A DNA stretch of 64,000 bases from Moniliella sp. 'wahieum' (GCA_003971905.1 RSEE01000072.1:1-64000), one strand, 5' to 3'; positions 2,801 through 63,400 are shown, counted from the stretch's first letter. Translations and numbers: made by a program. Notes: generated by a model from the sequence alone, not told the origin.

Positions 2801-4709
2801 GTGCGAGGAGGTCAATCTGAGTGTTTCCAACGTCGGATTTGGGCCAAAGGAGCGCTGCCAGGATGGAATGAGCATGGGAGCACCCCGCAGCACGGCACAG
2901 CTCACAGTCAGTGGCGTCCGCCCCAGGCCAGCGTCCCTGGCAGCGTCGATCAGCGATCCTCGATCCACGGCCACTGCCGGCGCAGCACCGCACTGGTCTC
3001 TGAGCATGCATCCCGCAGCACGCCTGCCGGCCCGTGCCGCCCATGCGCGCGACTGTCACATGCCACATGCCACATGCCACACAGGGTTAAGTACGTACTC
3101 AGTACTCAGTACGCATTACATCATTGTACGTCATTATATTGATGATTCGATGATCGACGTCCTCGGTCATCGGCGTGGCTCGGTGACTCATCGGCGATGA
3201 TCCATACGCCCGCGGTCCAGTGCTCCGAACGCCGGGCCTCGGCCTCAGTGGTGGTGCAGCCACTGAACCTGTGCGGTAATTCTGCCACTGCCTGCGCCTC
3301 AGCTTTGGTGTCGTACCGCCTGCACGCTTGATAGTCCTTCAACACCTCAGCGCTGGTGGCTGGTGCCGCACCGGCTGTGCCTCAGTGCTGGTGCAGTACT
3401 GCCTGCATTTGCATGTGCATGATGCATGACATATGACATGCATGATAGTGCTTCAAGCTTCAAGCTTCAAGCTTCAACGTCTTCAACCTCAGGCCTTAGG
3501 CGCCTCAGGGCAGCACCCAATGCGAATCACAGGTCGCATTGGCACACCAAGTGCACGGGCCATGCGGCTTGCACGAGGCATGCCATTCATGCATCAGTTG
3601 CATCAGTGGTATACCACTCAACGTTCAACGTACTCAACGTACTCAACGTACTCAACGTTTAGCGTCGAACGTACTCAGTGCTGGTGCTGCAGTGGCCAGC
3701 GAACCGCTGCTAGAGCCGCACGTCTCAGCTGTCACTGTCACTAGTCACTAGTCACTCGGGCAGTCTGCACGTACGGCCCCCTGCAGAGACCAGCGACTGG
3801 GGCCACAACGCCCGCCGCATCGCAGAGCACCGCCGCTACGCCCGCTGCCCTTGTTTGCTGCCGTTCACAACGGCAACGCCGCCACCCTGCACACCGGACA
3901 GATGCCAGTGTTTGAGAGCTCGGCCAACGCTCAGCGGGCGTGCCTGCAGGCCCAACTGCCCTCGCACCACCTCGCACGCCCCCGCGCCCCCCGCCTCCTT
4001 CTCGTGGCCTGCTGGACTGATGCACTGATGGGACTGATGAATGGATCAACACCTGGTCAACCTGCGTGCGGGTTGGGTGTCCGCTGGCCATCTGCATGCG
4101 CCAGCACCATCCCCAGACCTCTCGCACCTCTCCCCCACCACGCGCTTGCACTGCAACTCATGATCCCACAACATTATAACGGCCAAGCTGATAGCGATGG
4201 TACACTATGGGTGCCGGGGTGTGTTGCACTGAGCGGGCGGCAGAGTCGTAGCAGATGTATGGCAGGTCGTCGGTACTCCCCAGGAAGCGCCTCAGACGGG
4301 CTCTCAAGGGGCTGCGCGAGCAGCGGCCCAAGCCACCGCTTGTTCCATAGTTAGTTAGAATAGCTCGAGCGCACGTCGTAACTTCAAACTTGTCAACCAG
4401 CGAGAGGACCACCGGGCCGACGGCCTGGGTTGTTGAACGTGCAGTGTTGAAGTTCAACGTTGAGCACGTTGAGCGGGTTGAACGTTGAACGTTGAATGTT
4501 GAGGCCGGCTCCGCGCACGTGAGTTCCCGGGGACGGACCGTCGTTGACGAGGTCACGTGGAAGCGCTGCACCCCCCGACGTCCAGAGCCAGACAGGGGCG
4601 ACGAAGATCCCGGTTGTCACGTGAACCCGATCGCCACTTACATAATTACGTCACGAGTGGTGCGCCCAAGTTACCATTGACCTCGACCACCTCACCGGCG
4701 TCGATGCCA

Positions 4710-4989
4710 CCAGAAACAAGCTCACTGCCTAACTTACCTAGCCATCGTGGCGAGGTGGGAATGGGCTCATCGAAAGTTACGATGCTGGAGAATGAGAACT
4801 AACACTCACAGCGATGAACGACTATTCAGTATTCTTGGGTACAGGCGATGAAGATGCCAGCAAGTTATAATTGACCCTTTGATATAGTATCCTTCCTCCA
4901 GAAACAAGCTCACTGCCTAACTTACCTAGCCATCGTGGCGAGGTGGGAATGGTCTCATTCGAAAGCCACGATGCTGTAGAATGAGAAAC
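4710..4989. repeat. ~90-bp direct repeat, period 188 bp
   Basis: CCAGAAACAAGCTCACTGCCTAACTTACCTAGCCATCGTGGCGAGGTGGGAATGG... starts at 4710 and 4898. Confidence 0.95.
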
Positions 4990-5102
4990 ACTCGCCACCC
5001 CCATCGTCAATAAGGTTGAGGTCGCTATCTGCCTTGAGCATCCCCAGGCGGGTACCAGTTCTATAAGATGAACGACTTGGCGGCGGCGGCCGCCTATGCA
5101 GC

Positions 5103-5191
5103 GGGGTTACAATGTTCAAATGTGACGTTTTCGGCCAGCCCTTATTTTTTGGCGGGGCATGCCATTGTAACCCCTTAACCCTAACCCCCCC
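5103..5191. repeat. 12-bp perfect inverted repeat enclosing 72 bp, abutting a telomere-like seed
   Basis: GGGGTTACAATG (5103-5114) and CATTGTAACCCC (5163-5174), then TTAACCCTAACCC at 5175-5187. Confidence 0.8.
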
Positions 5192-5198
5192 TTGGTAC

Positions 5199-6450
5199 GC
5201 TATAGTTGGCGGGAACAGACAGAGTCCTGAATAAGAGCAAGTGCTACTGATATAGTAACCGCGACTTGCAGAGTGCTCGACGTAAGTCGTAAATTCGTAA
5301 GCGTATAACGGTGAGGAGTGAAGCTGAAGAGGGAAGTCGGGAGTATAGACGGGGGTTGACGTGGGGGCCCAACGGTGAGGATCACCGCCAGCAAGCCTCC
5401 GACCGACTGCTTATATATCGTAACATCACAACAGGCGTCAACAGAAGGAAGGGGAATCTACAGTAGTAAACGGAAAAGGGCGGCATGTTCTGTCCAGACT
5501 GCGAGCCGGGGGGGCGCAGTCGATGTGGAGTTCTATCAAGACCGGATGCCGCTGATACGAAGCATCGTACCGTTAAGTCCGGTCCTCTCCTGGCACTCCG
5601 CGGAAAACATCCGTGGCAAGTCGTCCGTGCTGGCTTTTACTCACAAGTGTCGTGGGAATGGCGTGTGCGTCGATGAAGGTTCTACGACATGCGGGGCTCG
5701 GTGTCCGGAGAGATGACCGGAGCGCCCCATAACAGTACCCATGCGCCCATATTGAGCGGGCTGCGAAGGATCCCAACTGCATGCACTGGATAATAGATAA
5801 GCTCTCTTGCTAGCCTATGTAGAGACTGACGTGCTAGTAAGAGATGCCTATGACATGCGGGGCTCTGCGTCGGGAGACACCGGAGCGCCTCGTAACAAGA
5901 GTCAAGAAAATACAGAGGCTAGAGAATACTCCTGTGCCTTCCAGGAAAGAGTATTGGAAGGAATGACCAGGAAGGTTCGGCGCTTTTGCACTACGTCTTT
6001 ACCCTACTGGGTGCCATTTGGCGATTGGAGACGTTGGCCAAAACAACGGAGCTCAACCACCGGTGTTGCAACTTGGGTCAAGGACATTAGATTACGATTA
6101 CACCGAACCATGCCAGTGAGAGGAGGAGTGAGTTACTAGTTTTCTCTATACTGCATCCCTATCATTGACAGAGCTTTAAAGGCGTCGCGGTGCTCTCATG
6201 TACCGCCTTCTGATGAGAGCTGGAGTCCAGATGGTCCTCGAAGGTGATGCAATCGCACTGATGGTGGTGGTGGTGGTGGTCTAAGCCAACCAACAACGCC
6301 TATACAGAGGAACATTAAGCAGCGAGTCGCCACCAGGGGCTAAGCTGCGGAACAAGGAAACACAGGAGAGAAAAACAACGGAACTCCTAGGGCTGAGGAG
6401 GAACTGAAGGGACATTGGCCAAAGAACGAGCCACCTGATGGCTCAACACC
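5199..6450 (+). repeat. Diverged third copy of the aspartic-protease upstream region, without the protease CDS
   Basis: 5207-5460 resembles 21557-21780 (GGCGGGAA.AGACAGAGTCCT...GTAAATTCGTAAGCGTA). 6215-6450 resembles 22035-22260 and 18370-18600 (CGGAACTCCTAGG.CTGAG.AGGAACTGA.GGGACA). Confidence 0.85.
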
Positions 6451-8068
6451 TTCCGGTACGCGGTCTGCGCCTGCGGCGTTACATGAGTTGCTCGTTTGCT
6501 CAGACCGACGAGACCATTTTTCTCACGCCCATCGTTTAGATGCTTGGGATGCACCTTACACTACACAGCCCCTGTACTGGCGCCGCACGGAGCCGCATGA
6601 GAGCACCAGTACAACCCTGCTGCCTGCGGCGCCACCGACTGATCGCCTATACTGCGATTCTCAGATCTCATGTCAATCATTCTCTTCAAGCTTCGCTTCA
6701 CTAGCTCTTCAAGCTTCAAGCTTCAAGTTTCAAGCTTCACTAGCCGCTAGTCACTAGCTCCACCAGTACTCTAGTACTCTTCGTACTACGTGAGGCCGGG
6801 TGAAAAAATGGGAAATGGGAAACGCCCCCGTGCACTTTTACATCAGCTGACGCGTGCCACGTTCCAGTTCACCTAGCCAGCGCGTATCTCTAGGGGGAAC
6901 GGTGGCTAAGGTGGCGGCCAAGCACCAAGCTGGGGCGAAGAGCTGACCGGGCCGTAGGCCGGTGGTCTCCTCGTTGGTGATATTATTTTGTCTCTCCAGA
7001 GGAAGGGTTCCAGCGTGGAACGGTGTGGAACGGTGGACCAGTGGAACGGCGGCTACGGTGGCAACGGTGACCCAGCCCAACAGGCTGGGGCGAAGCCTCA
7101 GCAGACCGGGCCGTGGGCGCGCGGTGGTTTCCTAGTGAGGCGCATAGCGGCCCGCCCACAGATCGCTCAGTTGGACGAGATGCAAAGAAAAGTAGTGGTG
7201 TGATTGATGAATGCCTGGCCCATCTGGTCAGCTGTGGCGAAGCAGCGAATACGCGGCAAACACATCCAAGGAGGCGGAACAGCGGCGGAACACGGGGCCA
7301 TCGCCTCGCACAAAGACCCCTCTGACCGGCCACGATCGAGGTTGCATAAGCAGATCCAGGGACCATTGCCTTTTGCTTTTGAACGTTGAAGCTTGAAGAC
7401 TCATGGCACTGATGTCGTTGTGATCGCCGACAACAGATTTGACCTCACTCGCGTCCTTGACCTCAGGATCGCTAGGGAGAGCCGAGATGGCGCTGACATC
7501 CTCGATGTCAGAATAATTAAGGTTTCTGACATCAGCGACATCACTGCCACCATGGATATTGATGACGTGTACACTATCAAAAAGGGGTCGGTAGTGCACT
7601 TTGTCAACTCTGCCTCTCCCCACACCGCGACACCCTGTGCGACTTGCTGAATTTGCCTTTGCCCACAGGACTGTCCGGTCGAGGGCGATAATGTCCCATC
7701 GACAGACGACATTGTGCGGGCAGTGTAGTCATATCAGTGTAGTCATATATCGATGAAGACGGTGAAGACGGTCCAAATGAGCTACGAATGATGTTATGAT
7801 TATAAGTTGTATCCACCACTGATGTATACTCTTCAAGCTTCACCATCAGTCTACAAGTTTTTGACGGTGGCGAGGTCCGCAGGGTCCGATAATAGATTGT
7901 AGGCCAGAAATTTCGATTAGCTATCAGTGGTTCCGACAACTATTTGGAGCTCCTCCGGTGGGTGAGCGAAGGCAAGAGATCTGGTCGAACAAGCGGCTCT
8001 TTCGGGGTGGAGTGTGTCTCGAAGAAGGGTGAGGGGGAAAAGAATGGTGATCGGCTTGGCCATCACAA

Positions 8069-9222
8069 TTGGATGGCAGAACACTGAGGCTGATCCAGTC
8101 CGCACGTTTCGCCGAAATCGTCGACGAGGACCCGTTTTGGCTCTGGACCCAGTATATGAGCCATGAGTTGTTACGGGTGGCCACTCTGCCAGTTCATCCG
8201 CCCCCCCTCTTTCCGACGCTGACAGCGCCCACCCCATCCATGTTACCGTTCACACCGAGCCGACGGCTTGCAGTTCCTCGACTCGCTCACCGTACATGCC
8301 AACGTTCTCTTCCTGAAGCAGAGAGAGATTTGTCCAGGTACGACTTGAGCAGGCAGTGGGAGATGAAAGTTCCGTCCAAGGTGAATGGGACTGAGGGAGG
8401 GCCACCGCTCCCTCAGGAGGTGTCGCCCCTGCCCCCCCTTCCTCGTTGTCTATTCCCTGACGACGAGCTCGACCTGAGTACCAGCAGGAGTTGCGCCAAC
8501 AACATCACCAACTTACCATGAAGGTCCAAGCACTCGCTCACCGATCGGGACAGACAATTTCGGAGCGAGTGGACACTTACTTGCAGCTCCAAGCTGACCG
8601 TTTTCGATCAACCGCGACAGTCTGTGGGGCGGGCGCGGTGTGTTGGAAGCTGGATCAGGGCCGATCGAACCCCTCGCCTACGAGCCCCATCGAGGTGAGC
8701 ATTAAGGAAAAGCACGGACGGTTGCATGCCACCAAGGTGCGCGTGCACCCTAACCTTCTCTTCCCGAGGCGCAAGTCAACCTCTGGAGAGAGGAGATAGG
8801 AACGTATGAGTTCTCACGGATCAATCGGTTCAGCCACAACACTGATATATGGACATTGATGATCCGGAGAGCATGGAACAACAGTTGCACGAAGAGGCGC
8901 TCCAGCTACGCCGACTTGCAGCCGCCCCGGGTACCACGGTGCGTGAGCGTGCGCGACGCTGTCCAGCTCCAGGAGGGTGCCATGTATGACGACTGGGTGA
9001 GAAGGGTTGCGTGGGAGTACGAGGATTCCAAGAGCGAGCATGAACAAGAGGACCTGGATTTGGATCGCTCACCTCCGAACTTCTCCTGAAGCTGTCGCTC
9101 TCGCACGGGAAGAGTTTGAAAAGGGGGTGGATCAGCTGGTGCAGCGCATTCTGCGCCCTGCTGCACCCGGATTTGAAGTGCGCAAGGATCCTCCTACCAC
9201 CTTGTTCCTCGTCCAAGACTGA
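8069..9222 (+). CDS. Hypothetical protein (frameshifted, start uncertain)
   Basis: Chain of overlapping + ORFs (8069-8521, 8491-8799, 8856-9089, 9007-9222) that join into protein-like sequence, e.g. FPDDELDL/EYQQELRQQHHQLTMKVQAL. No family recognised. Confidence 0.35.
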
Positions 9223-9376
9223 AAGGAATCGCGTCCAAAGCCGAATGGATCAATGCATCGTCGTAGGAGAAGGTTAGTTGTGTCACGTCGCCGCGACGAT
9301 CAACTCGCCTTTGTGCACAATCGCTTCCGCTCTCTTACCGTCGCTCTCGCTCCTCGGCTTCTCTGTCTATCACCAC

Positions 9377-9887: not shown

Positions 9888-10666
9888 GTGGGAGGCAGTC
9901 GACAGGCAGCCTGTCCTGCGCACTTTTGTAGCAAAAGGGGGGCGAGCCAATGTCCCACCGCGGTTGACGCTGCCGGTGAACGTTGGGGGAATGGTGAACG
10001 TTGGTGCGTTGATGGTGGTGCGGGGGCGGAAGGGCAGAACCGCGCTCAGGCGCTCATCACCGTATCTACATTCAAATTCAAAGATCACGCATCGTTCGTA
10101 TGCCCAACCAGATCCCAGAGCGCATCACGCATGACGGAGTACATTATGTGATTTGGATTTGGCGGCAAGCGACCGGCGACACGCCTGGACCATGTGGCAG
10201 TCACGAGTGACTAGTGACTAGGGAACGTCTGAAGCTTGAAGCAGCTCCCGCGCACCTGTCCGTCACAACACCAAATTCGCAGGCCACCCGCGGGGCCAAC
10301 ACAGGCGCTGTGTGCCCTGCCGCTCTCGGCAGGATTTGGGGTTTGGGGGCATGCGATTCGATCAGATCTTCAGAGTCATGGGAGTCACTCACTTGGTAGT
10401 CATCTGCCGCAAAGTCGGCCTATAGTTCGTCCTACTGCCACCAGGAATACGTCTGAAGGGACGGCGACACGAGGGAGATGGGGCGAGCAGGCAACCTGTC
10501 AGAGAAGCTCTTCGCCGCCGGGTAGGCGAGTGTCACACCCATCAAGCGAGGGCGGTGCAGGGGGACCTAGTAGTAGCACTGGCACTCGCCTCTCACAACG
10601 TCTGATGAATCTGATAGGTGCGGTGGGGGGGGGGAAGAGAAGAGCAGGCGGGAACAAAGAAATACG

Positions 10667-10754: not shown

Positions 10755-11282
10755 GAGGGCGCGGCGCGAGGGAGGCGGCAGGGGCGGAGGTGGGCGGCGC
10801 AATCGGACGATCCCTGGGCGATCAGCATCGCCTCAGCAGCGGGGGGGCGTGTGGTGTGGTGTGGTGCGTGTGGTGCGGCGCAGCGCAGGGGCAGTGCGCG
10901 CGCCGCCGCGTAGGGTTGGGGTGGGCGCCTGCGCGGAGGGCGTGGCTCGGGGCGAGTGTGTGGCGCGTCGGGCGCAGCAGCGCCGGGTGGGCGAGGGTGG
11001 GGCTGGCACGGCGGCGCTGTGGCTGCGCGCAGGCGGGGCGCAGGCGGGCGCACGGGGGCGCAGGCAGGCGCAGGCCGGCACTGGCACGCACTGGCGCGCC
11101 CTCGGCGGCGCAGGCGGGGCGCAAGCGACGCGCAGCCAACACCACCCGCTTCCCCTCGCCTCCGCCCGCCGCATCCACCCGCTGCCCCCGGCGCCCAACC
11201 CAACCCAACCCAACACCCAACACCAACACCCAACACCCAACACCCAACACTCGTTTCGCTGCCCGCCGCGTCGCTGCCGCCC

Positions 11283-12099: not shown

Positions 12100-12143
<44 letters not shown>

Positions 12144-16206: not shown

Positions 16207-17431
16207 AGCTGTAAACCTGTGAACCTGCGAAGTGCGAACAGTGGAAGGAAGCTGTCTCATGGCGCGCCACGGCAAAGCTTGTCCTACCTTCCCCCTCTGT
16301 CCTGTGGCTCTAGTGGACCCCATGGGACGGTCCCCCCCAAGTTCCTAGTTCCAAGTCCCAAATTCTCCGCTCCAAGTTCCAAGTTCTCTGCTCCCAATTC
16401 TCTGCTCCAAGTTCCCCGTTCAGGCCGATGCTGCGGCCCAAGTTCCGGCCAAGCTCAGGCTCATATCCATTCTTCTTCCATGCACCCATGCACCCATCCA
16501 CTCCACTCCACTCCACTTCAATTCAATTCAATTCAATCCACTTCAATCCAATCCATTCTGCCTCATCTCGGTTCTTGAGGTCTTGCTCTTGCTCTTGCTT
16601 TTGCTTTTGCTTTTGCTCCTGGCCCACTCCGCTTTACTTTGTCTTCCTCTCTTCGCTTCGCGCTGCACCCCGTTTTTGGCCATCTTTTTTTTTCCTTTTT
16701 TTCTTTCTTTCTTTCCTTTCCCGCGCGCGCCCCTTATCGCCTCACCCCCCCCCCCCCCCCCTTCCCCTGCCGCCACGTCTCTTGCTCTCTTTACTCCTTC
16801 CTGCTGGTCCCATTCCAAATGGCCGGTTCTGGGCGGCTGCATTGGTCCCAACGTATGCTTTACTACGCCTACCCTGGATCGGCCTCTTCGCCCCGCGGCC
16901 GCATCTGGTTGGGATGGGATGCTTTTTTTTCTCTTTATCTTCTCTTTCGTTCTCTTCTTTTGCCTACTGTGGATGGACCCAGGACGCTAAGCCCACCCAA
17001 GCTAAACCAAGCTAAGCTAAGCTAAGCCAACCCAAACCAAGCACAAGCATGTTTGCAGGGGCTTCCAAGTTAAACGCGAAACGCGAAACAAAACGAACCG
17101 TGAGCAGATTTGATTTGGCCGATTGGCTTGCACTAGATCTAGATCTTCTTTGCTTTTGCTGTTTGCTCTTTGCTGTTTGCTGTTTGCTGTTTCTACTAGT
17201 AGAAGTTCTAGTAGTACTCAGGTGGGAACCGGGCGCCGAGGCTGGTCATATAGTGCCTCCTTCTCGTAGCACTACTACCTCTGTTTTTTGGTCGAGTTCC
17301 AGGGAACGAGTTTGGTGGGAGGTTCCAGTGTGCATTCCGGATTCCATAGTACTACCTTCAACGGACGGCATCGATAGCGAGGCAGGGACGAAGCAGTCTT
17401 ACTTTAATACTAACCTTAGCGGAGTCTGACA

Positions 17432-20411: not shown

Positions 20412-22445
20412 GGACCGCCAGCATGCCCGGGGGGTCGTGTACGTCGCGGGTAGTGGATCCACGCCATCCCCCAAGACTCGTGTGTGTCTGCCCTTTGTTC
20501 AAGTTAATCGGCGCACGCCCCATCGATTCCTCCTTTTCTTGTTCCTCCACCTCTCTCTGCGTGTGCGGCAAGTACCGATCCATCAACGTACTTGACGTGC
20601 ATGTCGCATGCGCTTCGTTTCCCAGGGGGAAATCTTTAACTTCTTTTGTTGATCCTTGTCCACTACTACTCTTTTCTCTGCTACGTACATTTCGTCGCTC
20701 ACACCAGTGGCAGGTGTGCGACGACGCTGGCCGTCTCGCACCGCCTGTACTGCTGCGACGGAAGAATGAATTAAGGCGAATGAATTAACGCCAGGATGAT
20801 GTTGCCAGGTCCTCACCCACCGGCGCCTTGCCTCATTCGTAGATGTGAATGCCAGACCCAAGAGTTCCGCGCGCAGGCCAGCAGGCCACGTGTCCCCTCC
20901 TGTCCCACTGCTTGTTCTGTCATTTTCGCAACCACCTCTTCCCCCTTCCCCTTCTTCTCGCTCACCTCGTTACTTGAAGCTGGATTACTACTCGCTGATC
21001 GTCTGTGGTTTAGTGCCTAGTAGGTATCTCGGGTCAGAGCCTTCAAGCGTCGCTACACTCTCTTGACGCGTGACGCGTGACGAGAGATGGCAACCTTAAT
21101 AGGCGTATAAACCCTTGGACAGGCCAATCTCGGTGTCTCGCACGTTAGGTCCCAGTTCTTCAGATCCTGGTTGAACGCGCGTTGAACGTTGAACCGCCGA
21201 GCAGGTGTAGAGGCGAGAGAGAGACCCTCTAGTTTGGGTGGCTGCCTGCGGGAAAAGGCTGCAGCTCAGACCCTACGAGCGGTAGGAGCCGCGTACGTAA
21301 TAGGTCGTTAGACCAGCTGAAGGGGTCCAAAAGCTCCGAAGTTACTCTGTTCCTCGCGGTGATACCACACTCTCTGTCGGCCTCGCTACTACCACAGAAT
21401 GTGAGCACTGAACGTCGTATTGACTAAGAAGCTTCTGCGACTGACTCGTCCAGAAGACTGGTGCGAGCTCGGAAGGAATGAAAGCTGACTCACGTGACTC
21501 AGGGTCCGCGCGGTCCTAGGACGGATGTCAACACTCTCGGTAGCTGTAGTACTGTAGGCGGGAAAAGACAGAGTCCTAAACAAGAGAAAGCGCTACTGAT
21601 GTGATCGATGAGAGTAACCGCGGCTTGCAGCGCACTCGAAGTAAGCGGTAAATTCGTAAGCGTAAGGGTGGTAGAAAAGAGAGAGGAAAGAGTAGTCGGG
21701 AAGACCAAAGACAGGATGGTTGACAAGGACCACAGCTGGCAGACTTTAAACAAGGCTGCGTATATACTCCAGAAGGAACCAGGCCTCAAGTGCCTCATGA
21801 CAGATATAGACAGAATGCGGGGCATTTCCCAGAGAAGTAAAGACTAAGGCACAGCTCATGCTCTCAACGGCGCTGAAGGCGCTAAAACGGCGTAGCCGGG
21901 GCGCAGCAGGAAGGGTTCTGCCCATATGAGGTGCAATGGGCACAAAGCATCGTATCAATGAGCCCATAAGACCCGGATGGCGGGCTGCGGATGATAGTTT
22001 ATCCCACATGTAGTACCCTATGGTTTTCACTTGATGAGACCTGGAGTCCTGATGGTCCTCGAGGGTGATGCTAGTGGTGGTGGGGCGCCAACCAGCAATG
22101 CCTAGTACGGCGGAACATCACGCAGACAGTCGCCATCAGGGGCTAAGCTGCAAGACAAGGAGTAACACAGGAGAGCCGGAAAACAACGGAACTCCTAGGC
22201 CTGAGAAGGAACTGAGGGGACATTGGACACAAAGCATGAGCCACCCAGCTCAACATCACTTTGCCATAGTACGTCGTACGCTCTCCACAGGGAAGAGCCC
22301 CTAGCATCGCCCCTCCTTCACCCTCCAGTAGCATATAAAAACCGGCGCATTCACCAGCCCTTTTCTCTTTTTCTCCCACCCCCCATCACTCCTCCTCTCT
22401 CCCCAACTACCTCTTTTCCTCCTCCACGTCTCACCACTTTTGATC

Positions 22446-24031
22446 ATGCTTCTTTCCAACACGTTCGTCGCCGTTGCTGTGGCGCGGGAGCCACGGGCGC
22501 ACTGGGCGCCCCGTCGCCCACGGGCCACCGTCGGTCAATCACCCTGCCGCTGCAGCGCAACGAAGGGCGTAGCCTTTGACTGACGGTAAGGTAGACCAGA
22601 ACAAGTTGGCGTCCGAACTTGGCCGCTTGCGCTCCAAGTACGCCGCTGGTCTGGCCAACTACGAGCACAACGTGGGTCACAAGCACATGCTTGACGCTAC
22701 TCATCTCGTTCCGTCGCGGCACAGGCAGTGTTCCTCTCGCTGTGCAAAACGACGAGGAGCTATGGACTGGCTCGGCCGAGTGGGGGCGGCCAGAAAATCC
22801 AACTTGGTACGTCGTCGTAACTGTCCACTCCCTCCTATATCTATTTCTGGCTTCTTCCAAAGAGTCCACCTGGGAGCCCCACACTTCCCCTTGAGTTGTT
22901 CATGCGGAAGCTGCTAACCTGAGAGGTCTGCGATACCTGCAATGTGACGAACAGATTTTGACACGGGCAGTTCGGATACGATTGTCAACCCGGATTGCCT
23001 ATCTCCGGCGAAGTCCAGCTCATCAAAGGACACGGGCACGACGTTCAGCGAAGCTTATGGAACCGGTTCTATGCGTGCTTCAGGGGAAGTTTACTCGGAC
23101 ACGTGAGCATTGGTGTGTGTGTCGGCGAACATTGCGTACATTGGACGTGCAGACGAAACCTTCATTAGCAACGAGGGGAACAGTCAAGGGCTTGCGGGAT
23201 GGCATTCCCTTCCCTCTCCTCCTTTACGCAAAAGGAACCCTTCTTCCAGTCTCTCAAGGCCGGTGCCCTGGACCAGGAAGGATTCACCATGAAGCTCCGG
23301 ACCGAAGGAACGTCGACGATGACCTTGGGATCCTCAGCTCCAGCGCCGAGTATGTCCCGGTCACCAAGCCAGCCTACTGGTCCGTCGATGGCAAGATTAA
23401 CGACCAATCCATCACCGCCATCATCGACTCGGGCACAAGTGTGATTGTTGGTGCGTCCCACTCCACGTCTTGGATTGTTTCGATACCTGAAAGGCATTAT
23501 ACTGACCTCGGAGTGCGTTGTCGCTGTGTTATTGGGCGTTGATCAATGATCCATGATCCATGATCCATGATCCACAGCCCCCGCGTCCGAGGCCAGGCAG
23601 CTGTACACGTCGCTTGGGCTGCAAACGCAAGAAAACATATTAGAAGGCACGGTCCAGGCGACGTACGATTGCTCTTCTCCGCCCAAGGTGAGCTTGACGT
23701 TTGGTTCGAAAACCATCCCCTTGGGCAATGCCACGTCGTACGGGCAGGGCTACAGCGGCCAGTGTGTTGCCGTTGAGGGCTCAGACGGCAGGGGACGACG
23801 GCATGGATCGTGGGCGATCCGCTGTTCCGCAACACGGTATGTAGAATTTTATCCAGTGTGCTCGTCTTTCTTCTCTTTTCTTTCTCTCCACTAGTGGTCT
23901 CTCGAGCCATATTGAGCAGAGGGAGGCGGGGTATTTCAACGACCTGGGACTGACAATCTTCTGAACCTGCGTGACGTGGTGTCCAGGTGGTCTCCTTCGA
24001 CGTTGCCAAACAACGCGTTGGATTCGAGTAA
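22446..24031 (+). CDS. Secreted pepsin-like aspartic protease (family A1), copy 2
   Basis: Paralog of copy 1 with FDTGSSD, IIDSGTS, WIVGDPLFRNT and FDVAKQRVGFE*. Same three introns. Indels are probably sequencing errors. Confidence 0.88.
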
Positions 24032-28777: not shown

Positions 28778-29536
28778 GGCACAGCAGAGCAGAGGCAGCG
28801 AGGAGCGGTGGAGGTGGAGGTGGTGGTGGTGAGGAGGGCGAGGGGCGGTAGGGCCGCCGGGTGTAAAGCAGCCCTTTTTCCCCTCGGGTTTTTTTTTTCG
28901 AGCGCGGAAAGCACGCCGGCGGAATTCGGCGCAATGGCTGCCCTCTGCGCACCTGCCTCATCACAGCTGCATCACATCCCCATCGGCGGCCACCGGCCAC
29001 CCACCCACACTGAAGCTGACGTAACCCCCCGAACCTTCGGGCGCACGCTTCCCAACCGGCACCCCCCGCCCAGCCCGGGCGCACCCGACGTAGGATGGAT
29101 GGGCAAGCGAGCCGGCTGCCCATCGCATCGCATCGCATCGGATCGCCCTTGGTGCGTTGCTCCATCCCCACTAGCCCTACCGAACCATGGCTACTACGTA
29201 CATGCCTCGCCCTAACGACTATCGGCCATCGACCATCAGAGACCACGAGCACGCCTCAAACAAACAGTTGTGCAGGTGCAGAGCAGGTGCAGTGGGAGGG
29301 GGGGCACACTTGCATGTGATTGGACTGGCATGGGGGGAACAGGGGAACAGGCAGGGTCTGACCAACCGCCAACGCAATCCACGGCACGGCAGCTGAGGTG
29401 GGAACGGAACGATCGGACAGATATGCGACTGGTCTTGGTACGTACGAACCAGACGGCAGCCCAGGACGAGAGGCATGCAGCCTCGACTGCCCAGACACCA
29501 CATCCCACTCACCACACACCACACACCACGTACCAC

Positions 29537-30116
29537 TTAGTACGGGTTGTCGGCCGGGTGCACGTCGTGGCTGAAGTGCGAGCCAATCTAGACCAAGGAC
29601 AAGAAAACACAGGAAACCAAAATAGAAAACGTTAGACCAAAGCACACACTACGCACAGCCGTCGTAGCGGGGAGAAGCCCCTGGGTTGCGGGACCTAGGG
29701 AAGGAGGCATGCCCAAAGCAGAGGGGGAGGCAGACGAGTACCCTGTGCCACCCCCTGGCTTGTCCGACCCGACCCGACCCAGCCGGGTGGATTGCATCGC
29801 GACCGCAGGGCCCCAAGACGGGACCCAAGCGACCCCAGCAACCCAAGCAACCCACAGCCCAACGAACAGCAAAAGGACAAAAGGCAGGACGTACGATAGG
29901 AAGTTTCTCAAGGACGTCCTTGTCAAAGAGGGGGATGCCGCTCATGTAGAGGGCGATGAAGCCGGTGGCGGCGGCGCCCCAGCCGACGGCGGAGCCAGCC
30001 AGGTTGGGCAGCGTCTCCGGGGTGAAGATGCCGAGGGAGGGCTGGGGCTTGAGCTGGGGCGCCATCGCAGCGCGGGTGGCGCGCAGCGGCGCAGCACGGA
30101 CAACGGAGCTGAACAT
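29537..30116 (-). CDS. QCR10: Cytochrome bc1 complex subunit 10
   Basis: Exon 1 (30116-29895) MFSSVVRAA...PQPSLGIFTPETL..GWGAAATGFIALYMSGIPLFDKDVLEKLPI. Intron 29894-29588. Exon 2 IGSHFSHDVHPADNPY*, a typical fungal Qcr10 C-terminus. Confidence 0.88.
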
Positions 30117-34209: not shown

Positions 34210-34210
34210 G

Positions 34211-35870: not shown

Positions 35871-35946
35871 GTACAGGTACAGGTACAGGTACAGGTACAG
35901 GTACAGGTACAGGTACAGGTACAGGTACAGGTACAGGTACAGGTAC
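35871..35946. repeat. (GTACAG)n perfect microsatellite, ~12.5 copies
   Basis: Directly visible. Confidence 0.98.
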
Positions 35947-38503: not shown

Positions 38504-41500
38504 GGGTGCAAGCTGTGTGCGCGGGGATGGAAAGAGTGTAGGGTGTGAGGTGGGGGTGGGGGAGGGGAAGCGGGGGGAGGCCGGAGGGAGGGAGAAGTGC
38601 GAAGTAACGTGATGGGCGACGGGGGTAAAGAGAAAGAATGGAACTGTGCTACGTGCGAGACCTACTACCGTCTCTCCGGTGCCCTGCTGTGCTGCCATGC
38701 CACTGAGCGCAACTGAAGCGCACGCGCGAGAACGCCTGGCCGCCACGCAAGTCCGGCGCAGGCACGGAGGAGTGCTAAGGCCCACGGCGAAACGGCCCAA
38801 GGCTATAAGGAAGCCCTGTGCAAGCGCCCACTAAGCCTTCGCAGTAACTAGTAAGCGCTACTGAGCCTCTCGCGCTCTGCCGTTGAAGCATCAGCTTCAC
38901 ATGAAGCGGCTGGTGCGCCAACTGCTGTGCTGCTGTGTGCGGAGCGTATACGAGTACTGAGTACGGGGGAACTGTGTGTGGAGGTGCGGGCGAGGCGATC
39001 TTGTTCCTGCACTTGGCTTGTACGTCCTGTGCCTTGTCCAAGAGCAGCTGGCCGCGTGCGGTGCGTCCCAAACTAGCAACTCGGCTGGGTGAGACCAGGG
39101 CGCCACACCCGGCGTGGCGCTGGCTGAGCGGCTGAGCTGGCCAGCCTGCTCGCTCAATCATAACATTAATCGTTGGCCTGCTGCGGCGCGCGGCAGCAGA
39201 CAGCCAGGCGGGGACCAGCGATCATCTGCCCATCCACCAGCATCATCCATCAGCTTCAAGCTTCAAGAGTGTCCCAGATCCCATGTCAATTCCTCTGACG
39301 CGATGGTCGGTGATCGATGACGATGGTCGAAGGTCGTGGCTTGGCAGGTTTCCAGAGGGTGACCAGTTGCCGCGTGGGCGAGGCGGGGCGGGGCGAGGCG
39401 GGGCGTCGGAGTTGGAGGGCAAGCAGCTGTCGATCCTGCTCAAGAGCAAGAGCAAGAGCAAGAGCACGAGTAAGCAACGGGAAGTCGGAGGCCGATGGTC
39501 GATGGATGGCCCATGTGGATGGGATTGCTCGACGTGAGCAACGAGCAACGGCGCGGACGCGAGGATGTGCGGGGACGGAGGCGCAGGGTGTAGTAGTAGT
39601 GGTGGGGCATAGTATAGGAAGCGAAAAGCGCTAAGCTAGTAAATGATCTTTTAAAGCTTAATGATCGACTCTTCGCTTGCTGAAGCAGTACGTACAGCGG
39701 AGTCCGAGTACGGAGTAGTGTACCGAGTACCGGGAACGAGAGCACGAAGGAGTGATTAATGATTCGCTACTCGTGTTCGGCTCAGCTGAGCGCTCCAGCT
39801 GATGCAGGTGAAGCGAGGATGGTCATGTCGATGATGATGTGAATGATCGATGGCACGATGGCGAGGAGCCTTTGAGCTTTTGAGTGAGGCCTTTGAAATT
39901 TGAGGCCGAGGCCTGAGGGGCTGGCAGTGGCTAACGCGGCCAGGGGACTGTCTGACGTTGAACGCTGATGCTCGCGTGCGAGCGTCGATCATTACTTTTA
40001 GTCATCATTTTCACTGCATTCGTCGCGAAAAAGCACATGGTATGGTACTCGTCCTCAAGTACTCATCAGCGAGGTACCATGTGCTACTACTCCAGGTTAC
40101 TAGTGACTAGTGACTCCCCTCGCCTCCTGTTCCCAGTTCCCAAGTTCTCTTCAATCGTTCCGCGTCCGCGTTACATGTTACACGCGTTCCATCCATCCGT
40201 CGCAGACCACTGCCTGTCCCAAGCACACAAAAAACCATCCGAGGCGGGTCACATGGTCACGGTCATCGGTCTCAGCCCGGCACAGGCAAAGTCCCCAGCC
40301 CGCTAACGTTCTAGCCTGTTGAGAGTAGGATCGAGCATCCTCTTCGGTCCGTTCGGTCCTTTCGGTTTCAGGCCTTCAGGGATCGACGGTCGGATCTCCG
40401 AATCTCCGAGTCACCGATCATTCATTGGTTCAGATATCTCAGATCTCAGCGATTACCACACATCATGCGTGACGCATTGGTAGCTTTGGTGCCAGTGCTT
40501 GGCGATCGTCGTCGGGCCCGGGAACCCGGCAACATTAACCACTGAACAATGGTAACTCTAGCAACGAGTACCTCTACCAACTATACTAGAGCAAATGGAA
40601 CAGAAAACAGGCTAGTTACAGCCCCCAGACACGTCTCCGCACGCCCCAACATGCAGTTGTCTATTCACCATCGACCATCCATCCAGTCATCGGCCTCTCG
40701 TTGCCGGCCCATCTGGACCGACGACATGGACGACAATGCACCGTAGAGAAAGAAGTACCGGGATCGGGGGGAACATATATCGGCTACACAAGCTGCTACA
40801 AAGCTAGTATGGGACCCCATCCATTCGGCTGAGAGATGCTCGGCCGTGCCATATCGACTCTAGCTTTCTGGCGAGGGGAGGGCAAACAGAGGGCCAAAAA
40901 GTGTCCCTGCGCATATCGCGAGTCCACCCCTCTATAGTCTTAGGCTTTAGGCCCACATTCGCCGTCCTTAATTCCTCTACTGGCAGAAGGGCAGGCTAGG
41001 GTGCTGAGACGGCAGGACCTTTAGAGGGGAAGAGGGGCTACAGAGCTTGAAAGCGTAACCTCCCGAAGCGCTTTGGTCAGGGCAAGTCCACGCCTGTGCG
41101 TTGACTCGTCCCGTCGTTCGATCGATACACACTTTTGGGCGGTGTTTACTTGTATACCACAAAAACAAACAATGAGGAACGGAGAGCGTTGTAGTGTTGG
41201 CATTGCAAATTGTACTGCTATGTCCAAGCCCGTCCAAGTTCGTGTGTGTAGTGATGACAGATGACGCGATGATGGAGCGCCGTAAGGAATCAGCCCAGAT
41301 CCGCCAGACGCGAGTGAAGACCAAAAAGACCCAAAAGTTCTCGGGTCATTTCCAATTCTATACCAATTCCGTCGCGCTTCTCCTTATCGTCCCTTTTGTC
41401 CCTCTTTTGGTCTTGTTGATGCCGGCCAAGTTCGTCCGATGCGTCTGATGCGCTTGCTTTCTCCACAAACCACGTTGCCACTCTCCCCATCTTATACTGT

Positions 41501-42860
41501 AGGACTGGACCGTGGTCTCGGTCGGCCGGGATGACCTGGGCGACACCCCGTGACAACATCAACAGTCCACTAGTTACCATCCACCAGTCAGATCTCAGAG
41601 ATCTGACAGGATCAGCCGTCACCCACAAGCTGGCCTTCCCTCTGGTGCTTCCCTCATAGAGAGACACTTGTGTTCACGCTTGGTTAGTCTATGCACTGCC
41701 GAGATGTTCTGCCCTCTGTGCCCTCGCCCAGCATCAGCCATCAGCCAGCTACCTGCATCTCGCGACCATGTGCCAGCGGTCTCTCTATGGCGCGCCCCCC
41801 CTGTCGCCCTTCTGCCTACTCCTCCCGGGGGCATCACCGACGCTCCGGTACGCCTCTGGCCTTCCCGTCAGGGCCAGAGCGTATCATCCGTCTGTTTGTG
41901 CCCTTGCCTTTCCGGTCCTATAGGTGCGAGTAAACCCCATGGCCGGTCGCGAGGGCACGATCGTACCGTTTTGGCTTACCGACTTGCGCACTCATTTGCC
42001 ATTTCTTGTGTTCTTCTTTTCTGTCTTTTGTCTTCTGTCTTCTGTCTTCTGTCTTCTCTGCTTGTCCCATTTACCGGTGTTGGTGGGAAGGTGTCTCTGT
42101 GGACGCTGGATCATGGTTCGGTCGGGAGGGATGCGATATGCCCTGATGGTACGCTGACATGATGCCATGGTGACATGGGTCAGACATACGCTTGTCCCCA
42201 CGCTGATGCATTGGTACCTCGTCTGCCTCTTCCGCCTCCTCGTCGTCCGACATGCCGCCCTTACACAGCTTTCCCACCGGCTCGCCCATTACCTCACCGT
42301 CGTATGGCCCACACAATCCAAACCCCCCAACGGCCCTGCCATGGCCTTGGCTGGCAGTTGCTTCTCCAGCCTTGATCACCAACCCTCATCGCACTCCCAC
42401 CCGCATCCGCACTCGCACTCGCACTCGCACCATGTGGTGGGGACATGTGGTGGGGAGCGAGAGTGGGGGGGATGGGAATGGATCTGTGTGCGTGAGCGTG
42501 TTGGATAGGCTGGGGATGGATGGAGGTGGTAGTGGTTGGGTTCGGGTTGGGCGCCAAGACGGTTCAGGACCGTGGCTCCCATGCGTCGACGCTCCCGAGC
42601 TGCGTGACGGAGTAAGGCGATGAATACTGAACACGTGATGTCCCGTGTGACATGTGATGTCTGGCCACATGCGATCGGCGTGGCTCATCACGTGGCGTGT
42701 CACTGGGCGCTCTGATTGGGCCGGTGCAATTGGAAGGCGGCGCAACTAGCATTTCATTGTGGCATTGCTACGGAGCCTCCGAGCCTCCGTCTGCTTCGCA
42801 GCCGCAGCGGGGGGAGGACAAGAGCACGAGCAACAGGAGGCGGGTATTGGGATGGGACGC

Positions 42861-43634
42861 TTAGACAAACCCAAGCAGCGTGGGCGTCTTTTGCGCATAC
42901 GCGTCGTAGGCAGGGAAGAAGGCGCGCAGATGATGTTCTTCATGGCGGATGCGGCGGCGGAAAAAGTTGCCGAGCACCACGGCAAACAACACCACACTCA
43001 CCGGGTTGGCCAGCAGGATTTGGGTGCCCACCGCCCAGTAGAAGAAGCCAACGTAGCTCGGGTGCCGCGAGTAGGCATACACACCCGATGTGACCAGCTC
43101 GTGGCGGTCGCTCTTGGACGTGGCGACGACATGGGAAAAGTTCTCTGCCGCATGGACCATCGCGAGCGAACGCACGGTCTGGCCGGCCAGGACGAGTACA
43201 AGGCCTGTGGTCACCCCAAACAACACAAACAGGTCAGGACGCTGTCGTCTAGCGAAAACAAAATACAAAAACAGAAAAGCACCTACCGAGCCACAAGGTC
43301 CAGGGGGGCGGCACCCAGCCGAGGTACGCTTCCACCTCCATTCCAGCACGCCAGTGGCCATGGCAGCCCAGTAGGCCTCGCCGTTGCGCAGAAGGAACGA
43401 GTCGGGGGACACACGGGAGGGTGCATAGCGCGCCGTGACGACAAACTCGAGGAGGTGGAAGAGGGAGAGGAAGACGACAAAGCACGCGAGGCGCGGGCCA
43501 AGGACGAGGGGCGCGTCGGAGGAGAGACGCTGAGGGCGCGGGGGGGGCGAGGCCGATGGCGAGGCCGAGGCCGGAGCCGCTGAGCGCGCTCTGGAGCAGC
43601 GCGTGCGCCGGGCGCGACGTACAACGGAGGCCAT
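42861..43634 (-). CDS. STE14: Isoprenylcysteine carboxyl methyltransferase
   Basis: FHLLEFVVTARY..DSFLL, GQTVRSLAMVHAAENFSHVV, HELVTSGVYAYSRHPSYVGFFYWAVGTQILLANP and RIRHEEHHL..F..YDAY. Confidence 0.95.
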   Translation of the reverse strand: MASVVRRARRTRCSRARSAAPASASPSASPPPRPQRLSSDAPLVLGPRLACFVVFLSLFHLLEFVVTARYAPSRVSPDSFLLRNGEAYWAAMATGVLEWRWKRTSAGCRPPGPCGSVGAFLFLYFVFARRQRPDLFVLFGVTTGLVLVLAGQTVRSLAMVHAAENFSHVVATSKSDRHELVTSGVYAYSRHPSYVGFFYWAVGTQILLANPVSVVLFAVVLGNFFRRRIRHEEHHLRAFFPAYDAYAQKTPTLLGFV

Positions 43635-43951
43635 GGGGGGGGCGGTGGGAGCGGCGTCGGCCGGGCGGCGAGCGCGCACAAAGGGAGGCCGCCAGGGCAC
43701 ACTTTGCAATGGCTCATTAATCATTAATCACGGCCCTCGGCGCCGCGGGCGGAATGGGCGGCGAAGCAGCGTGCTTCCGCCCGGCGCACCCACGCGGGCA
43801 CGGCGCCAGTGTTGCGTGGCGCCCCCGCGGCCGCCGCGCAGACGCCCTCCGACGCACCGCACGGCTGGATGCACTCGACCACCACCGGCGTCCACCCGCC
43901 GCCGACGACCTTCTCCACGGCCTGCTCGCCTCTGCCCTGCCCTGCGCCGCC

Positions 43952-61200: not shown

Positions 61201-61619
61201 GGTGAAGGTTAAAGGTGATGTGATGTTGGGTTGGCAATCGATATAATGGTAAAGGGGAGGATGGGGAACCGAGTACTGAGTACTGAGTGGAGAAGAGTTG
61301 GCAGTAAGAGGTTCGTGTGGAGTGCGGGGGGGGAGTGGAGGGGAGGATGGGAGGAACAAGAAGAAGGGAAGTGGGTGTGGAAAGTCTGCTTTTATCTCTG
61401 CTAGCAGAGTAAAATGGCTCACAAAAAAGTCATGCTGCATCAGGCCCATCAGGCCAGGAGGTTGAATGGGATGATGATCATGTTGAATGGCATAGGAGAA
61501 AGTGGAGTTGAAGCTTCGACACATCTGCGCCCTGCTGCGGCAGCAGCGCCTACTGTGGCCATGCTGATGATCTCGATGATGTTGCGAGCGAGGGCAGCCA
61601 TACAGGGTACCCTGTGGGT

Positions 61620-62811
61620 ACTATATAGTAGTGCCAACAAATAGAGGAACTCTCATGACATGCACATGACAGGGGGGAGCCAATCCACATCTCCGTCTAA
61701 TTCCCATGGAATCTCAGCCCGCGGGTTTCACTCCTATGGACCCGTATGCGGGGAGAGAGAGGAATTATACGAAGACGTGCATGACGCCACGCTTGCTATG
61801 TGAAAGAGGGTTCGGGACAAAGGGACAAAGGGACAGAGGAAAGAGGGACAGAGGGACAGTAGAGGGACGAGGAAACGACGAGGCGCAAGCGCGGGGTAGG
61901 CCAATGCACCACAGCCCACCGTCACCACTACAACTACCACTAGTAACTAGTAATGCATAATGGTCAAAAAGGGGGTATATAGGGACCACTGCATATATCG
62001 ATACAATGACCATCATGATGATGGCTCAGGATGATGCATGATCTCATCTGAAATCCTGACATCCTGAGATCTGAGAGATCCGACGCCAACGGGGGCGGAT
62101 ATGAGATCTGAGATCGAGATGCGCCGACCGGGACAGGGACCCGGGACTAGGAACCAAGGCTGCTCAACCACTCAGTTCTCAGTTCTCAGATCTCAGTACT
62201 CAAAAAGCACAGGAGAAGCACGGTAGGGTCAGATCTCAGAGGGGGCATGGGAACAAGACGGTGGGATTGGACTCAAGTGGGCGTTGCACGACCGCGCTCG
62301 TCAACGCCCCCGCCACATCAGGGGCGGAAGGCCACTGTGGTGGTACTGATGTCTGATATATGATACGGAGAGTGTGCCTCAATCCCACCGCCACTGGCAA
62401 CGCCTGAATAAGCCAAGGACAGAACGGAGAGTTTTGGATCGAGAGCACGACCCCGCGTCGGAGGGCTGATGTACGCCAAAAATGCGCCATAATACGATCG
62501 GGGGCGCAAGAAAAGAGACATTTTTTTTCGTTAACCAACTAGCGTTGCAGCTTCCCGCTTCAAGCTCTTCCCACTGACGCACTTACGCCTACTTGAGCTT
62601 ATAGAAGAGCAAACTGGCTTATCAAGGTTCAACCGCTATCGTCTGTCGCACAGGAGAAACATAGATGAGCGCGGCGTCGACTATCGACTATCGATGATCG
62701 ATTATCGATTGCCCAGCGCCCCTATTACAAGATCCTGCCCATAGGTACCATACTTAGCTTGAAGCTTGATGTGCCGGGGCTGCTGCCCCCTGTGTTAATG
62801 CAAGCGATTGG
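61620..62811 (-). promoter_or_regulatory. GDH upstream region with TATA-like and CCAAT elements
   Basis: TATATA-like at ~61622. CCAAT/ATTGG at 61680, 61901, 62266 and 62807. GATAAG (minus) at ~62618. Confidence 0.35.
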
Positions 62812-63400
62812 TGATGCTGATGAGGCCTGAGGGTGGTGGTGGGCAATTTAATACAGCGCCCCGCGGGGGCGCAAGGTCGGATGGACAAGTGTGCAACCGA
62901 GGCCTGGACGCCTGACGTTTTCGCCTCGGGGGCTGAGTCTCAGGGTGATGAGCTTGTGGCTTGAAGGAATGGACTGAGGCGGGGATGTAGGGCGGGATGC
63001 GGGGGATGCGGGGGATGCGGGGGAGCGGGGAAGGCAGTGGAGAATACACAGGCCCATGATGCATGATCCCTCTCAGTGGGGCAGATGCACATGCGATGGT
63101 TGGGTCCGGGATGTACGGGAAAACGCACAGACGAGCCAGGGAAAGGAGGAAGAAGGTTCCGACGACCAGGGGGAATACACGCTCCGCACCTTCGTCGCCT
63201 CTCCCCACCGATGGATGAGGTGAGGCAATTGAACCGAGCGCCATCCTAGATCTACGACAAGGGCGAGTTGGTACGCAAGTAGTTACCAGTCACTAGTTAC
63301 TGGTTACTGGCTACTGGTTACTGGTTACAGTCCAGCATTAGAGTAAAATATGGAATGGAATGAGACCTAGAGAGGCTGAGGGTTGAAGCTGTATGAGTGG

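Follow-up and report, generated by a model that had tools for sequence, protein, structure and literature searches.

The 64,000-nucleotide stretch RSEE01000072.1:1-64000 of Moniliella sp. 'wahieum' (GCA_003971905.1), hereafter the window, carries in its non-coding DNA a discrete family of short palindrome-cored words with a 7-bp period. Each word consists of T-N-A, a 4-bp palindrome and the same T-N-A again, which is equivalent to a hexamer palindrome of the form A....T plus one base. This 10-mer is found at 45 loci compared to 1.78 expected (~25-fold), with N being C or G in 40 of them, and these loci are found in five or more separate spacers, from 3 kb to 63 kb. All counts and tests refer to this single 64-kb window, in which T-S-A (S, C or G) plus a 4-bp palindrome is a crisp and strongly enriched sequence rule. 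We propose, at a probability of about 0.35-0.4, that the words originated as mutational scars of a break-and-repair or template-switch event at T-S-A, and that some of them were later expanded by slippage.

A T-N-A/palindrome word family in the spacers

Among the exact period-7 loci, the repeat unit is a 6-bp palindrome plus one nucleotide in 22 of 52, compared to 5.4 expected (P = 2.6e-9). The palindromic cores that a sequence-only reading of this DNA had pointed out are therefore statistically true, and the units are not arbitrary as those of ordinary microsatellites are. The outer pair of the palindrome is A....T in 20 of the 22 loci (P = 1e-10). No such enrichment was seen among exact-run loci at periods 4, 5, 6, 8 and 9, and self-complementary units at period 5 are depleted (15 vs 28 expected).

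Comparison of 64 flank and palindrome classes revealed that the excess is confined to one kind of flank, as the other 15 flank classes all stay within about threefold of the null. T-N-A flanks around palindromes of 2, 6 and 8 bp are not enriched either (7 vs 6.8, 1 vs 0.6 and 1 vs 0.08, respectively). An open scan over flanks of 2-4 nt gave TCA/TGA plus a 4-bp palindrome (40 vs 1.5) as the sole large outlier. The centre between two T-N-A flanks is palindromic in 56 of 102 cases when both flanks share the same N, in 9 of 66 when N differs and in 2 of 30 when N is complementary; the word flank is thus a direct, not an inverted, repeat. Thirteen of the 16 possible 4-bp palindromes occur, mostly those of 50% GC. 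Of the 210 A....T palindromic hexamers of the window, 56, or about a quarter, bear both shoulders with the same N. By hand count, 41 of 52 word loci are intergenic (17.8 kb), two are genic (22 kb) and nine lie in unclassified DNA.

The word loci are independent of each other, because self-BLAST (12 pairs) found no homology in the flanks of loci with the same unit and only the arrays themselves match; dispersal by duplication or as a repeat family was rejected on the same grounds. The two most recurrent 10-mers of the whole window are both words, present at seven and six separate loci. In several places, neighbouring units keep the flank and change the palindrome, from CTAG to TGCA between TAA flanks at 61944 and from ACGT to AGCT at 7380, while the successive centres at 62172-62202 are GTTC, GTTC, GATC and GTAC. 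Unrelated palindromes in neighbouring units speak for repeated events of a modular kind or for constraint, and against drift after a duplication. The oriented flanks of 24 single 12-mers showed no further conserved positions.

The ACTAGT/AGATCT vocabulary of the heptamer words recurs in a perfect 14-bp palindrome at 17191-17204 and in a 21-nt odd palindrome at 41587-41607.

Words rather than arrays

Most members of this class are not the duplicated heptamers that a 7-nt duplication mechanism, one of the two inferences of the sequence-only reading, would leave. Thirty of 49 word loci are only 10-13 nt long (3, 4, 16 and 7 loci at 10, 11, 12 and 13 nt, respectively), whereas 19 contain at least two full copies; the length mode is 12 nt. 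Among the 30 non-array loci, 23 reach at least 12 nt, that is, the period extends at least 2 nt beyond the core, compared to 19% expected from a 10-mer core. The sequence past the run ends is barely periodic (0.35 vs 0.31 in controls), so the short words are not eroded arrays. In addition, palindromic arrays have a mean length of 16.9 nt, compared to 18.7 nt for the other heptamer arrays (P = 0.59). The words thus appear to have arisen at this short length and not by expansion.

The most frequent form is a 12-mer composed of a pentamer D, the reverse complement of the last two bases of D, and D again, where D is T-S-A-x-y. When both strands were searched for T-S-A-x-y, any two nucleotides and the same T-S-A-x-y, the two intervening nucleotides were the reverse complement of xy in 46 of 57 cases.

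Heptamer repeats and the generic repeat background

All heptamer repeats listed in the sequence-only reading were found at their positions by Tandem Repeats Finder (TRF), by a list of exact runs and by direct reading, although the CCAAGTT array at 16337 has only 67% matches. Exact tandem runs of at least two copies were counted over the whole window against a local order-3 Markov null (100 shuffles). For periods 5-9 there are 110, 118, 54, 18 and 19 runs, compared to 76, 22.6, 6.7, 2.1 and 0.65 in the null. Among 193 TRF arrays (score of at least 30, overlaps resolved), period 7 is the commonest class, with 36 arrays vs 22, 21 and 27 for periods 6, 8 and 9.

For a comparison between compartments, Pfam and tblastn landmarks were used to define intergenic (17,783 bp) and genic DNA (22,169 bp), and the other 24 kb stayed unclassified. 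These landmarks replaced a home-made codon model, which was weak (GC by codon position 0.65, 0.53 and 0.62), and an open reading frame (ORF) mask, which spans 76% of the window. With 200 shuffles, intergenic runs at periods 4-9 number 82, 35, 27, 35, 11 and 8, compared to 57.5, 17.7, 6.1, 1.5, 0.54 and 0.22 in the null, whereas genic DNA has one period-7 run vs 2.0. The heptamer repeats are thus real, restricted to non-coding DNA and far above chance, and they possess the head-to-tail 7-bp copies of short tandem repeats. As in bacterial intergenic DNA, period 7 is over-represented among the intergenic simple sequence repeats (SSRs), with many different unit sequences.

The proposed enrichment of period 7 over its neighbours stands in part. 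The intergenic excess is largest at period 7 (33.5 runs, vs 17.3, 20.9, 10.5 and 7.8 at periods 5, 6, 8 and 9), and the observed/null ratio of 24-fold is above those of periods 5 (2-fold) and 6 (4-fold); however, it equals that of period 8 (20-fold) and is below that of period 9 (36-fold), so that the lead over period 8 is not clear. Autocorrelation gives a similar picture: lag 7 has the top intergenic value (0.300, z 8.1) but is tied with lag 6 (0.299, z 7.7). In genic DNA the signal is absent, with lag 7 at z -1.3 and only multiples of 3 showing.

The palindrome class makes up 16 of the 35 intergenic period-7 runs. Once it is removed, the excess at period 7 drops to 17.5, which fits the smooth series of the neighbouring periods given above. 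The extra peak at period 7 is therefore due to one discrete palindrome word family, and a general mechanism that duplicates a fixed length of 7 nt, as had been suggested, is not supported.

The indels between two 3-kb paralogues in direct orientation (18022-21058 and 21722-24616, 80.6% identical) agree with this. Among 48 indels, lengths of 1 (15), 3 (11), 2 (10) and 6 nt (3) prevail, and those of 4, 7, 10, 13, 17, 19, 30, 37 and 53 nt occur once each; the predicted peak at 7 and its multiples did not appear, as there is a single 7-nt indel. Several of the longer indels are plain tandem duplications of 10-15 nt. The sole informative case for a change by whole units is TGATCCA, with one unit in paralogue A and four in paralogue B, and its copy number therefore changed after the duplication. 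The duplicated segment has no Pfam domain, and its 254-aa ORF gave no usable match in Atlas; pieces at 5205-5305 and 6211-6435 resemble the segment or its upstream flank.

A symmetric 7-bp staggered cut with target-site duplication, which would also make a junction palindrome, was rejected by the phase of the repeats. Judged by eye, only one of the seven loci with whole copy numbers is in the phase of an odd-palindrome unit, four start at the boundary between T-N-A and palindrome, and two start elsewhere.

Because the period series declines smoothly after class removal and the paralogue indels agree, the generic background is ordinary, sequence-blind short tandem duplication. The long spacers are a patchwork of such duplications, and the spectrum of unit lengths declines smoothly between 4-5 bp and 9 bp and continues past it. 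Patchworks of this kind are the usual product of replication slippage or microhomology-mediated tandem duplication, and units that are not multiples of 3 are purged from genes. Microhomology-mediated tandem duplication is reported to be a conserved source of tandem repeats, with depletion in coding DNA (PMC13167724; bioRxiv 10.64898/2026.02.28.708716). The window shares with microsatellites and with such duplications the head-to-tail copies, the copy-number differences between paralogues and the depletion in coding DNA; moreover, each word is itself a 3-6-nt microhomology pair able to duplicate. By contrast, slippage and microhomology-mediated duplication are sequence-blind and leave the palindromic class, nearly half of the heptamer loci, unaccounted for.

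Origin of the words

In the proposed scar model, an event favoured at T-S-A would insert 7 nt, consisting of a 5-nt direct copy and a 2-nt inverted copy. Such an insertion automatically creates a palindrome, which can have almost any sequence. The event would explain why the period is 7, why the flanks are identical, why a palindrome of arbitrary sequence is always present and why lengths peak at 12 nt. Slippage or microhomology-mediated duplication would then expand some scars into arrays of 2-5 copies, because each scar would provide two 5-nt microhomologies at a distance of 7 nt. This expansion step is plausible, given the one vs four units of TGATCCA and the 10-15-nt tandem-duplication indels. 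The geometry of the scar would resemble a target-site duplication with the palindromic (P-type) filler left by hairpin-forming cut-and-paste enzymes. As to the agent, it is possible but doubtful that an undescribed site-specific mutational process, a cryptic mobile element or a nuclease acting at T-C/G-A writes these stereotyped 7-nt scars.

Several observations weigh against the scar model. None of 33 terminal inverted repeat pairs in the window (at least 9 nt, at most 3 kb apart, with matching 3-nt flanks) has T-N-A flanks, and no transposase domain is present among the Pfam matches of the window. The filler is too uniform for a hairpin/P-nucleotide model, which predicts a spread of lengths on both sides, whereas almost only a 2-nt one-sided filler is found (46 cases vs 6, 7, 2 and 1 for the period-5, -6, -8 and -9 variants); a broader scan for duplication plus P-type filler was confounded because arrays were counted more than once and was left unused. 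The 7-nt and 10-nt paralogue indels that make or remove near-words could be either insertions or deletions. Several words sit 80-350 bp upstream of the GDH, QCR10, COPA/ICMT and GMC oxidoreductase starts, which fits a regulatory role. Finally, the evidence comes from one window of an assembly that appears prone to indel errors.

Two variants of the origin were rejected. An inverted duplication or strand switch would give complementary-N perfect palindromes, which are rare (2/30). P nucleotides derived from a 3-bp duplication as filler would predict TCCA/TGGA centres, which only the TGATCCA array fits.

In the highest-ranked alternative, which we consider unlikely, the words would be functional cis-elements, A....T palindromic hexamers with fixed T-S/S-A shoulders, bound in promoters and spacers by one or more dimeric proteins and kept by selection while slippage varies their copies. 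The strictly non-coding location of the words and the 80-350-bp distances are in line with this, and so are the recurrence of the same 10-mers at 6-7 independent loci and the share of A....T hexamers with both shoulders (56/210). Palindromy also survives the change of centre (GATC/GTTC/GTAC at 62172-62202 and ACGT/AGCT at 7380), much like compensatory change. However, 13 different centres within the same shoulders are hard to reconcile with one sequence-specific protein, no orientation or distance rule relative to genes was seen, and most loci lie in multi-kb spacers far from gene starts.

Slippage biased by hairpins is more unlikely still. It supposes that heptamers in which one base is added to a 6-bp palindrome may form mini-hairpins with a 5-bp stem and a 3-nt loop that stabilize slipped strands, so that such 7-bp duplications would be preferentially born, expanded or kept, whereas a perfect palindrome of even period would not be stable and a shorter odd unit would be too weak. 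In silico folds of the arrays do contain a 5-bp-stem hairpin with a T-N-A loop; the enrichment of self-complementary units at period 7 alone and the near absence of perfect 10-bp palindromes (2/30) also suit this model. Nevertheless, the predicted folds of seven palindromic arrays are weak (-1.1 to -6.4 kcal/mol, z +0.5 to -2.6; four with z <= -2.1, one with z -1.3 and two with z ~ +0.5), and single 10-13-nt words, the majority, are unable to fold. Palindromic arrays are no longer than others, the outer pair is A....T only and not T....A, C....G or G....C, and period 5 is depleted (15 vs 28 expected) while period 9 has none. Nor is there a general excess of short inverted repeats, as the counts of 5-6-bp stems with 0-10-nt loops differ from the null by no more than about 3 standard deviations.

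It is also improbable that nothing special is present and that ordinary micro- and minisatellites of a repeat-prone genome, in a few spacers near a chromosome end, happen to follow the palindrome rule as a local quirk. The smooth unit-length spectrum minus the palindrome class, the many other periods, the telomere-like repeats at the start of the window and the use of a single window are all compatible with such a quirk; against it stand a 25-fold excess at 45 loci in at least five spacers, the independence of these loci and the extreme specificity among 64 flank/palindrome classes. Very improbably, the arrays are parts of foldback elements or miniature inverted-repeat transposable elements whose terminal inverted repeats consist of short tandem units: inverted pairs of same-unit arrays do lie 650-810 nt apart (3618/4457 and 6706/7379) or about 100 nt apart (62064/62184), but quasi-palindromic arrays look mutually inverted almost by construction, there is no similarity outside the arrays and no flanking duplication, and the region 6650-7410 folds no better than its shuffles (z -0.44). 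An assembly or sequencing artefact is scarcely credible despite the intronless frameshifts in conserved genes, one of them about 15 nt from an 8-G run, since random indel errors do not write exact palindrome-cored repeats at 45 spacer-confined loci, and diverged paralogues share arrays with differing copy number.

Comparison with known systems

Cut-and-paste excision footprints and the P nucleotides of V(D)J recombination have a short target-site duplication flanking a few palindromic filler bases. The words resemble them in combining a direct repeat with palindromic filler of fixed length and in a confinement to DNA outside genes, where scars are tolerated; the direct repeat around the palindromic filler is identical (same-N 56 vs different-N 9), with 4-bp filler only. 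They differ in that the window holds no element with a T-N-A target duplication, that the T-S-A flank is not known to match a target duplication of a fungal family, and that the filler is nearly always 4 bp and one-sided when read as D plus 2 nt. One element family should leave one filler, whereas 13 of the 16 palindromes occur; if the words are read as D, the reverse complement of xy and D (46/57), this objection of varied filler would be removed. Hairpin-forming quasi-palindromic repeats are alike in that the units are self-complementary but for one base per period and that mini-hairpins are predicted, but unlike in that the predicted structures in the window are weak, single words cannot fold and only one of the four possible outer pairs is used.

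An excess of heptameric SSRs is known from bacterial intergenic DNA, with GGGAATC in Xanthomonas, GGGGAYT in Nostoc and heptanucleotides in Calothrix among the examples (PMC4692102). There, the excess is unexplained, and the polymerase-footprint idea, a hypothesis quoted in that paper, is the sole proposal. The bacterial heptamers described in it are alike in that period 7 stands out among long simple repeats and that the arrays lie between genes at many loci, with variable copy number and occasional inverted pairs (PMC4692102). The commonest unit of the window is itself present at three or more copies in at least 121 bacterial stretches, compared to ~0.3 expected by our own arithmetic, mostly in Pseudomonas and its relatives among the matches listed. 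These bacterial copies adjoin other heptamer arrays, and the two loci that were read (L036 and L028) are intergenic.

The bacterial repeats differ in their prokaryotic hosts and in their units, which are G-rich or have an AAGC core plus a variable 3-mer. Their flanks do not follow the T-S-A/palindrome rule (nine word loci with non-AGCT centres in 183 kb, among the matches listed), and other period-7 runs in these matches have a palindrome plus one base in 13 of 111, which is at chance level. Because of the AAGC core and of flanks that break the rule, the likeness to bacteria lies in the period, not in the rule. The window itself is not prokaryotic, since it encodes COPA, CDC48 and the second-largest subunit of RNA polymerase I.

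In Pseudomonas and other bacteria, AAGC-core heptamer arrays form long intergenic strings (L036 990-1090 and L028 985-1160), for instance AAGCTTC x5 directly followed by AAGCCAG x8. A contig from a Hyphomicrobiales metagenome-assembled genome (in the set of bacterial loci that includes L001 500-1300) carries hundreds of bases of A/T-rich 7-8-bp arrays.

In the open-access literature, no comparable heptamer or palindromic 7-bp repeats were found described for fungi, Ustilago or basidiomycetes, and the heptamer runs of Ustilago maydis mentioned in the sequence-only reading found no confirmation there. PMC7218506 describes mitochondrial palindromes of the form (A)n-TATA-(T)n, which are unrelated to the words of the window.

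Gene setting and source of the DNA

The window has about 60% GC and encodes eukaryotic housekeeping genes separated by spacers of 1-7 kb (Table 1); Rfam and tRNA scans of the window gave no hits. The top named matches of a COPA fragment are from Ustilaginomycotina (59-61% identity), and three further matches have 61-63%. The COPA matches include Tilletia, Pseudozyma flocculosa, Tilletiaria, Testicularia, Exobasidium, Violaceomyces and Ceraceosorus, while other basidiomycetes have 54-59%; the guess of a fungal, ustilaginomycotine origin is roughly borne out by the best named matches of this fragment. For GDH, the top named matches are ascomycete enzymes with 64-66% identity. On these COPA and GDH identities, the source nuclear DNA is assigned to a basidiomycete to which no named species in the protein collection is closely related.

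The coatomer alpha (43950-47750) and GDH (59590-61200) genes contain frame shifts, one junction being about 15 nt away from a run of eight G, and the genes for the RNA polymerase I subunit and the CDC48-like ATPase are likewise split across frames. The frame changes in coatomer alpha and GDH are not introns, because neither the alignment of the protein nor the DNA is interrupted at the junctions; assembly indel errors would be the simplest reading.

At 13-295, a 136-bp unit is repeated 1.9 times and contains degenerate telomere-like tracts (CCCTAA/C-rich). Low-complexity, G-rich DNA follows at 1250-2100, and the window probably lies near a chromosome end. Other repeats include GTACAG x13.7 in the spacer at 35871-35953 and, at 3240-3700, a degenerate motif of about 50 bp (CCTCAG, then a GCTGGTG-like segment) that occurs at least five times between heptamer arrays. 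A CAG run of about 28 copies (12068-12149) and many 6-, 12- and 18-bp repeats (30800-34300) are found in ORF-rich DNA of 64-70% GC and are probably low-complexity coding sequence.

Table 1. Repeat features and genes of the window; the strand field is "." throughout for the repeat features.
Feature	Position	Strand	Basis
Long non-coding stretch; 14 T-N-A/palindrome word loci, besides many further short arrays	2300..9266	.	no Pfam match, ORFs >=110 aa
CACATGC x3.6, outside the special class	3057..3081	.	TRF, exact runs
GTACTCA x2.6 (TCA + GTAC; hexamer palindrome AGTACT)	3095..3112	.	exact runs; reverse at 61271
Two overlapping two-copy heptamers, TGCATGA and ATGACAT; palindromes ATGCAT, CATATG	3416..3439	.	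exact runs
GCTTCAA x4 (TCA + AGCT; AAGCTT)	3450..3477	.	TRF, exact runs; also 6707, 39252, reverse 62756
ACTCAACGT 9-bp array with one 7-bp unit TCAACGT x2; inverted relative to 4432-4503	3616..3658	.	TRF, exact runs
GTCACTA x2.9 (TCA + CTAG; ACTAGT)	3737..3756	.	exact runs; reverse at 10206, 40099
Imperfect GTTGAAC array, exact core 4477-4496 (TGA + ACGT; AACGTT)	4446..4502	.	TRF, exact runs; also 21180
Mixed TCA + palindrome modules: GATC, AGCT x4.7, CTAG, GTAC	6659..6790	.	word list, direct reading
TGA-ACGT-TGA-AGCT-TGA, differing palindromes side by side; inverted relative to 6706-6726	7379..7398	.	word list
AGTGACT x2.3 and TGA-AGCT-TGA word	10206..10242	.	exact runs, word list
ACCCAAC x6.3, generic heptamer array in 70% GC stretch	11208..11250	.	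TRF, exact runs
DIS3L2-like RNase	~12.4-16.0 kb	+	Pfam/tblastn
CCAAGTT-like array, 67% matches	16337..16386	.	TRF
TTTGCTG x6.4, generic heptamer array	17149..17192	.	TRF, exact runs
TGACGCG x2.7 (TGA + CGCG; ACGCGT), immediately beyond copy A of the 3-kb duplication	21064..21082	.	exact runs
CGTTGAA x2.1 (TGA + ACGT)	21180..21194	.	exact runs
TGATCCA x5; paralogous site 19924-19941 has a single TGATCCA unit	23540..23574	.	paralogue alignment
RNA polymerase I second-largest subunit	25.0-28.4 kb	-	Pfam/tblastn
CACCACA/CACCACT array	29496..29537	.	TRF, exact runs
QCR10	29.7-30.3 kb	-	Pfam/tblastn
AATTTTA x3.4 (TTA + AATT), upstream of QCR10-like ORF	30318..30341	.	exact runs
GMC oxidoreductase	36.4-38.7 kb	-	Pfam/tblastn
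Intergenic stretch of 4.2 kb; 11 word loci, among them 39252-39267, 40099-40115, 40436-40449; 21-nt odd palindrome 41587-41607	38662..42863	.	word list
TTCTGTC x5.6, generic heptamer array	42019..42057	.	TRF, exact runs
ICMT	42.9-43.7 kb	-	Pfam/tblastn
TCATTAA x2.4 (TCA + TTAA), between divergent ICMT-like and COPA genes	43714..43730	.	exact runs
Coatomer alpha (COPA)	~43.9-47.7 kb	+	Pfam/tblastn
DEAD_2 helicase	49.9-52.2 kb	+	Pfam/tblastn
CDC48-like AAA ATPase	~55.4-59.0 kb	-	Pfam/tblastn
NADP-GDH	59.6-61.2 kb	-	Pfam/tblastn
Intergenic stretch of 2.2 kb; 13 word loci, among them 61271-61288, 61939-61962 (TAA-CTAG-TAA-TGCA-TAA), 62064-62120, 62171-62202 (listed unit CTCAGTT at 62171), 62677-62710 (listed unit TCGAYTA at 62677), 62756-62769	61209..63403	.	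word list
ACTGGTT x5.3, generic heptamer array	63292..63328	.	TRF, exact runs

Implications

If the scar model is true and the density of ~0.7 loci/kb holds, the scars in a genome of tens of Mb would number in the order of ten thousand and would seed its heptamer microsatellites. If genome-wide, the word rule would be a sharp mutational or regulatory signature in a eukaryote, specific to the level of a regular expression, and would define a class of microsatellites traced to specific seeds instead of random proto-repeats. Such a rule would further indicate an as yet unknown DNA-binding protein or enzyme activity, and would give the unexplained heptamer excess of bacteria a eukaryotic counterpart.

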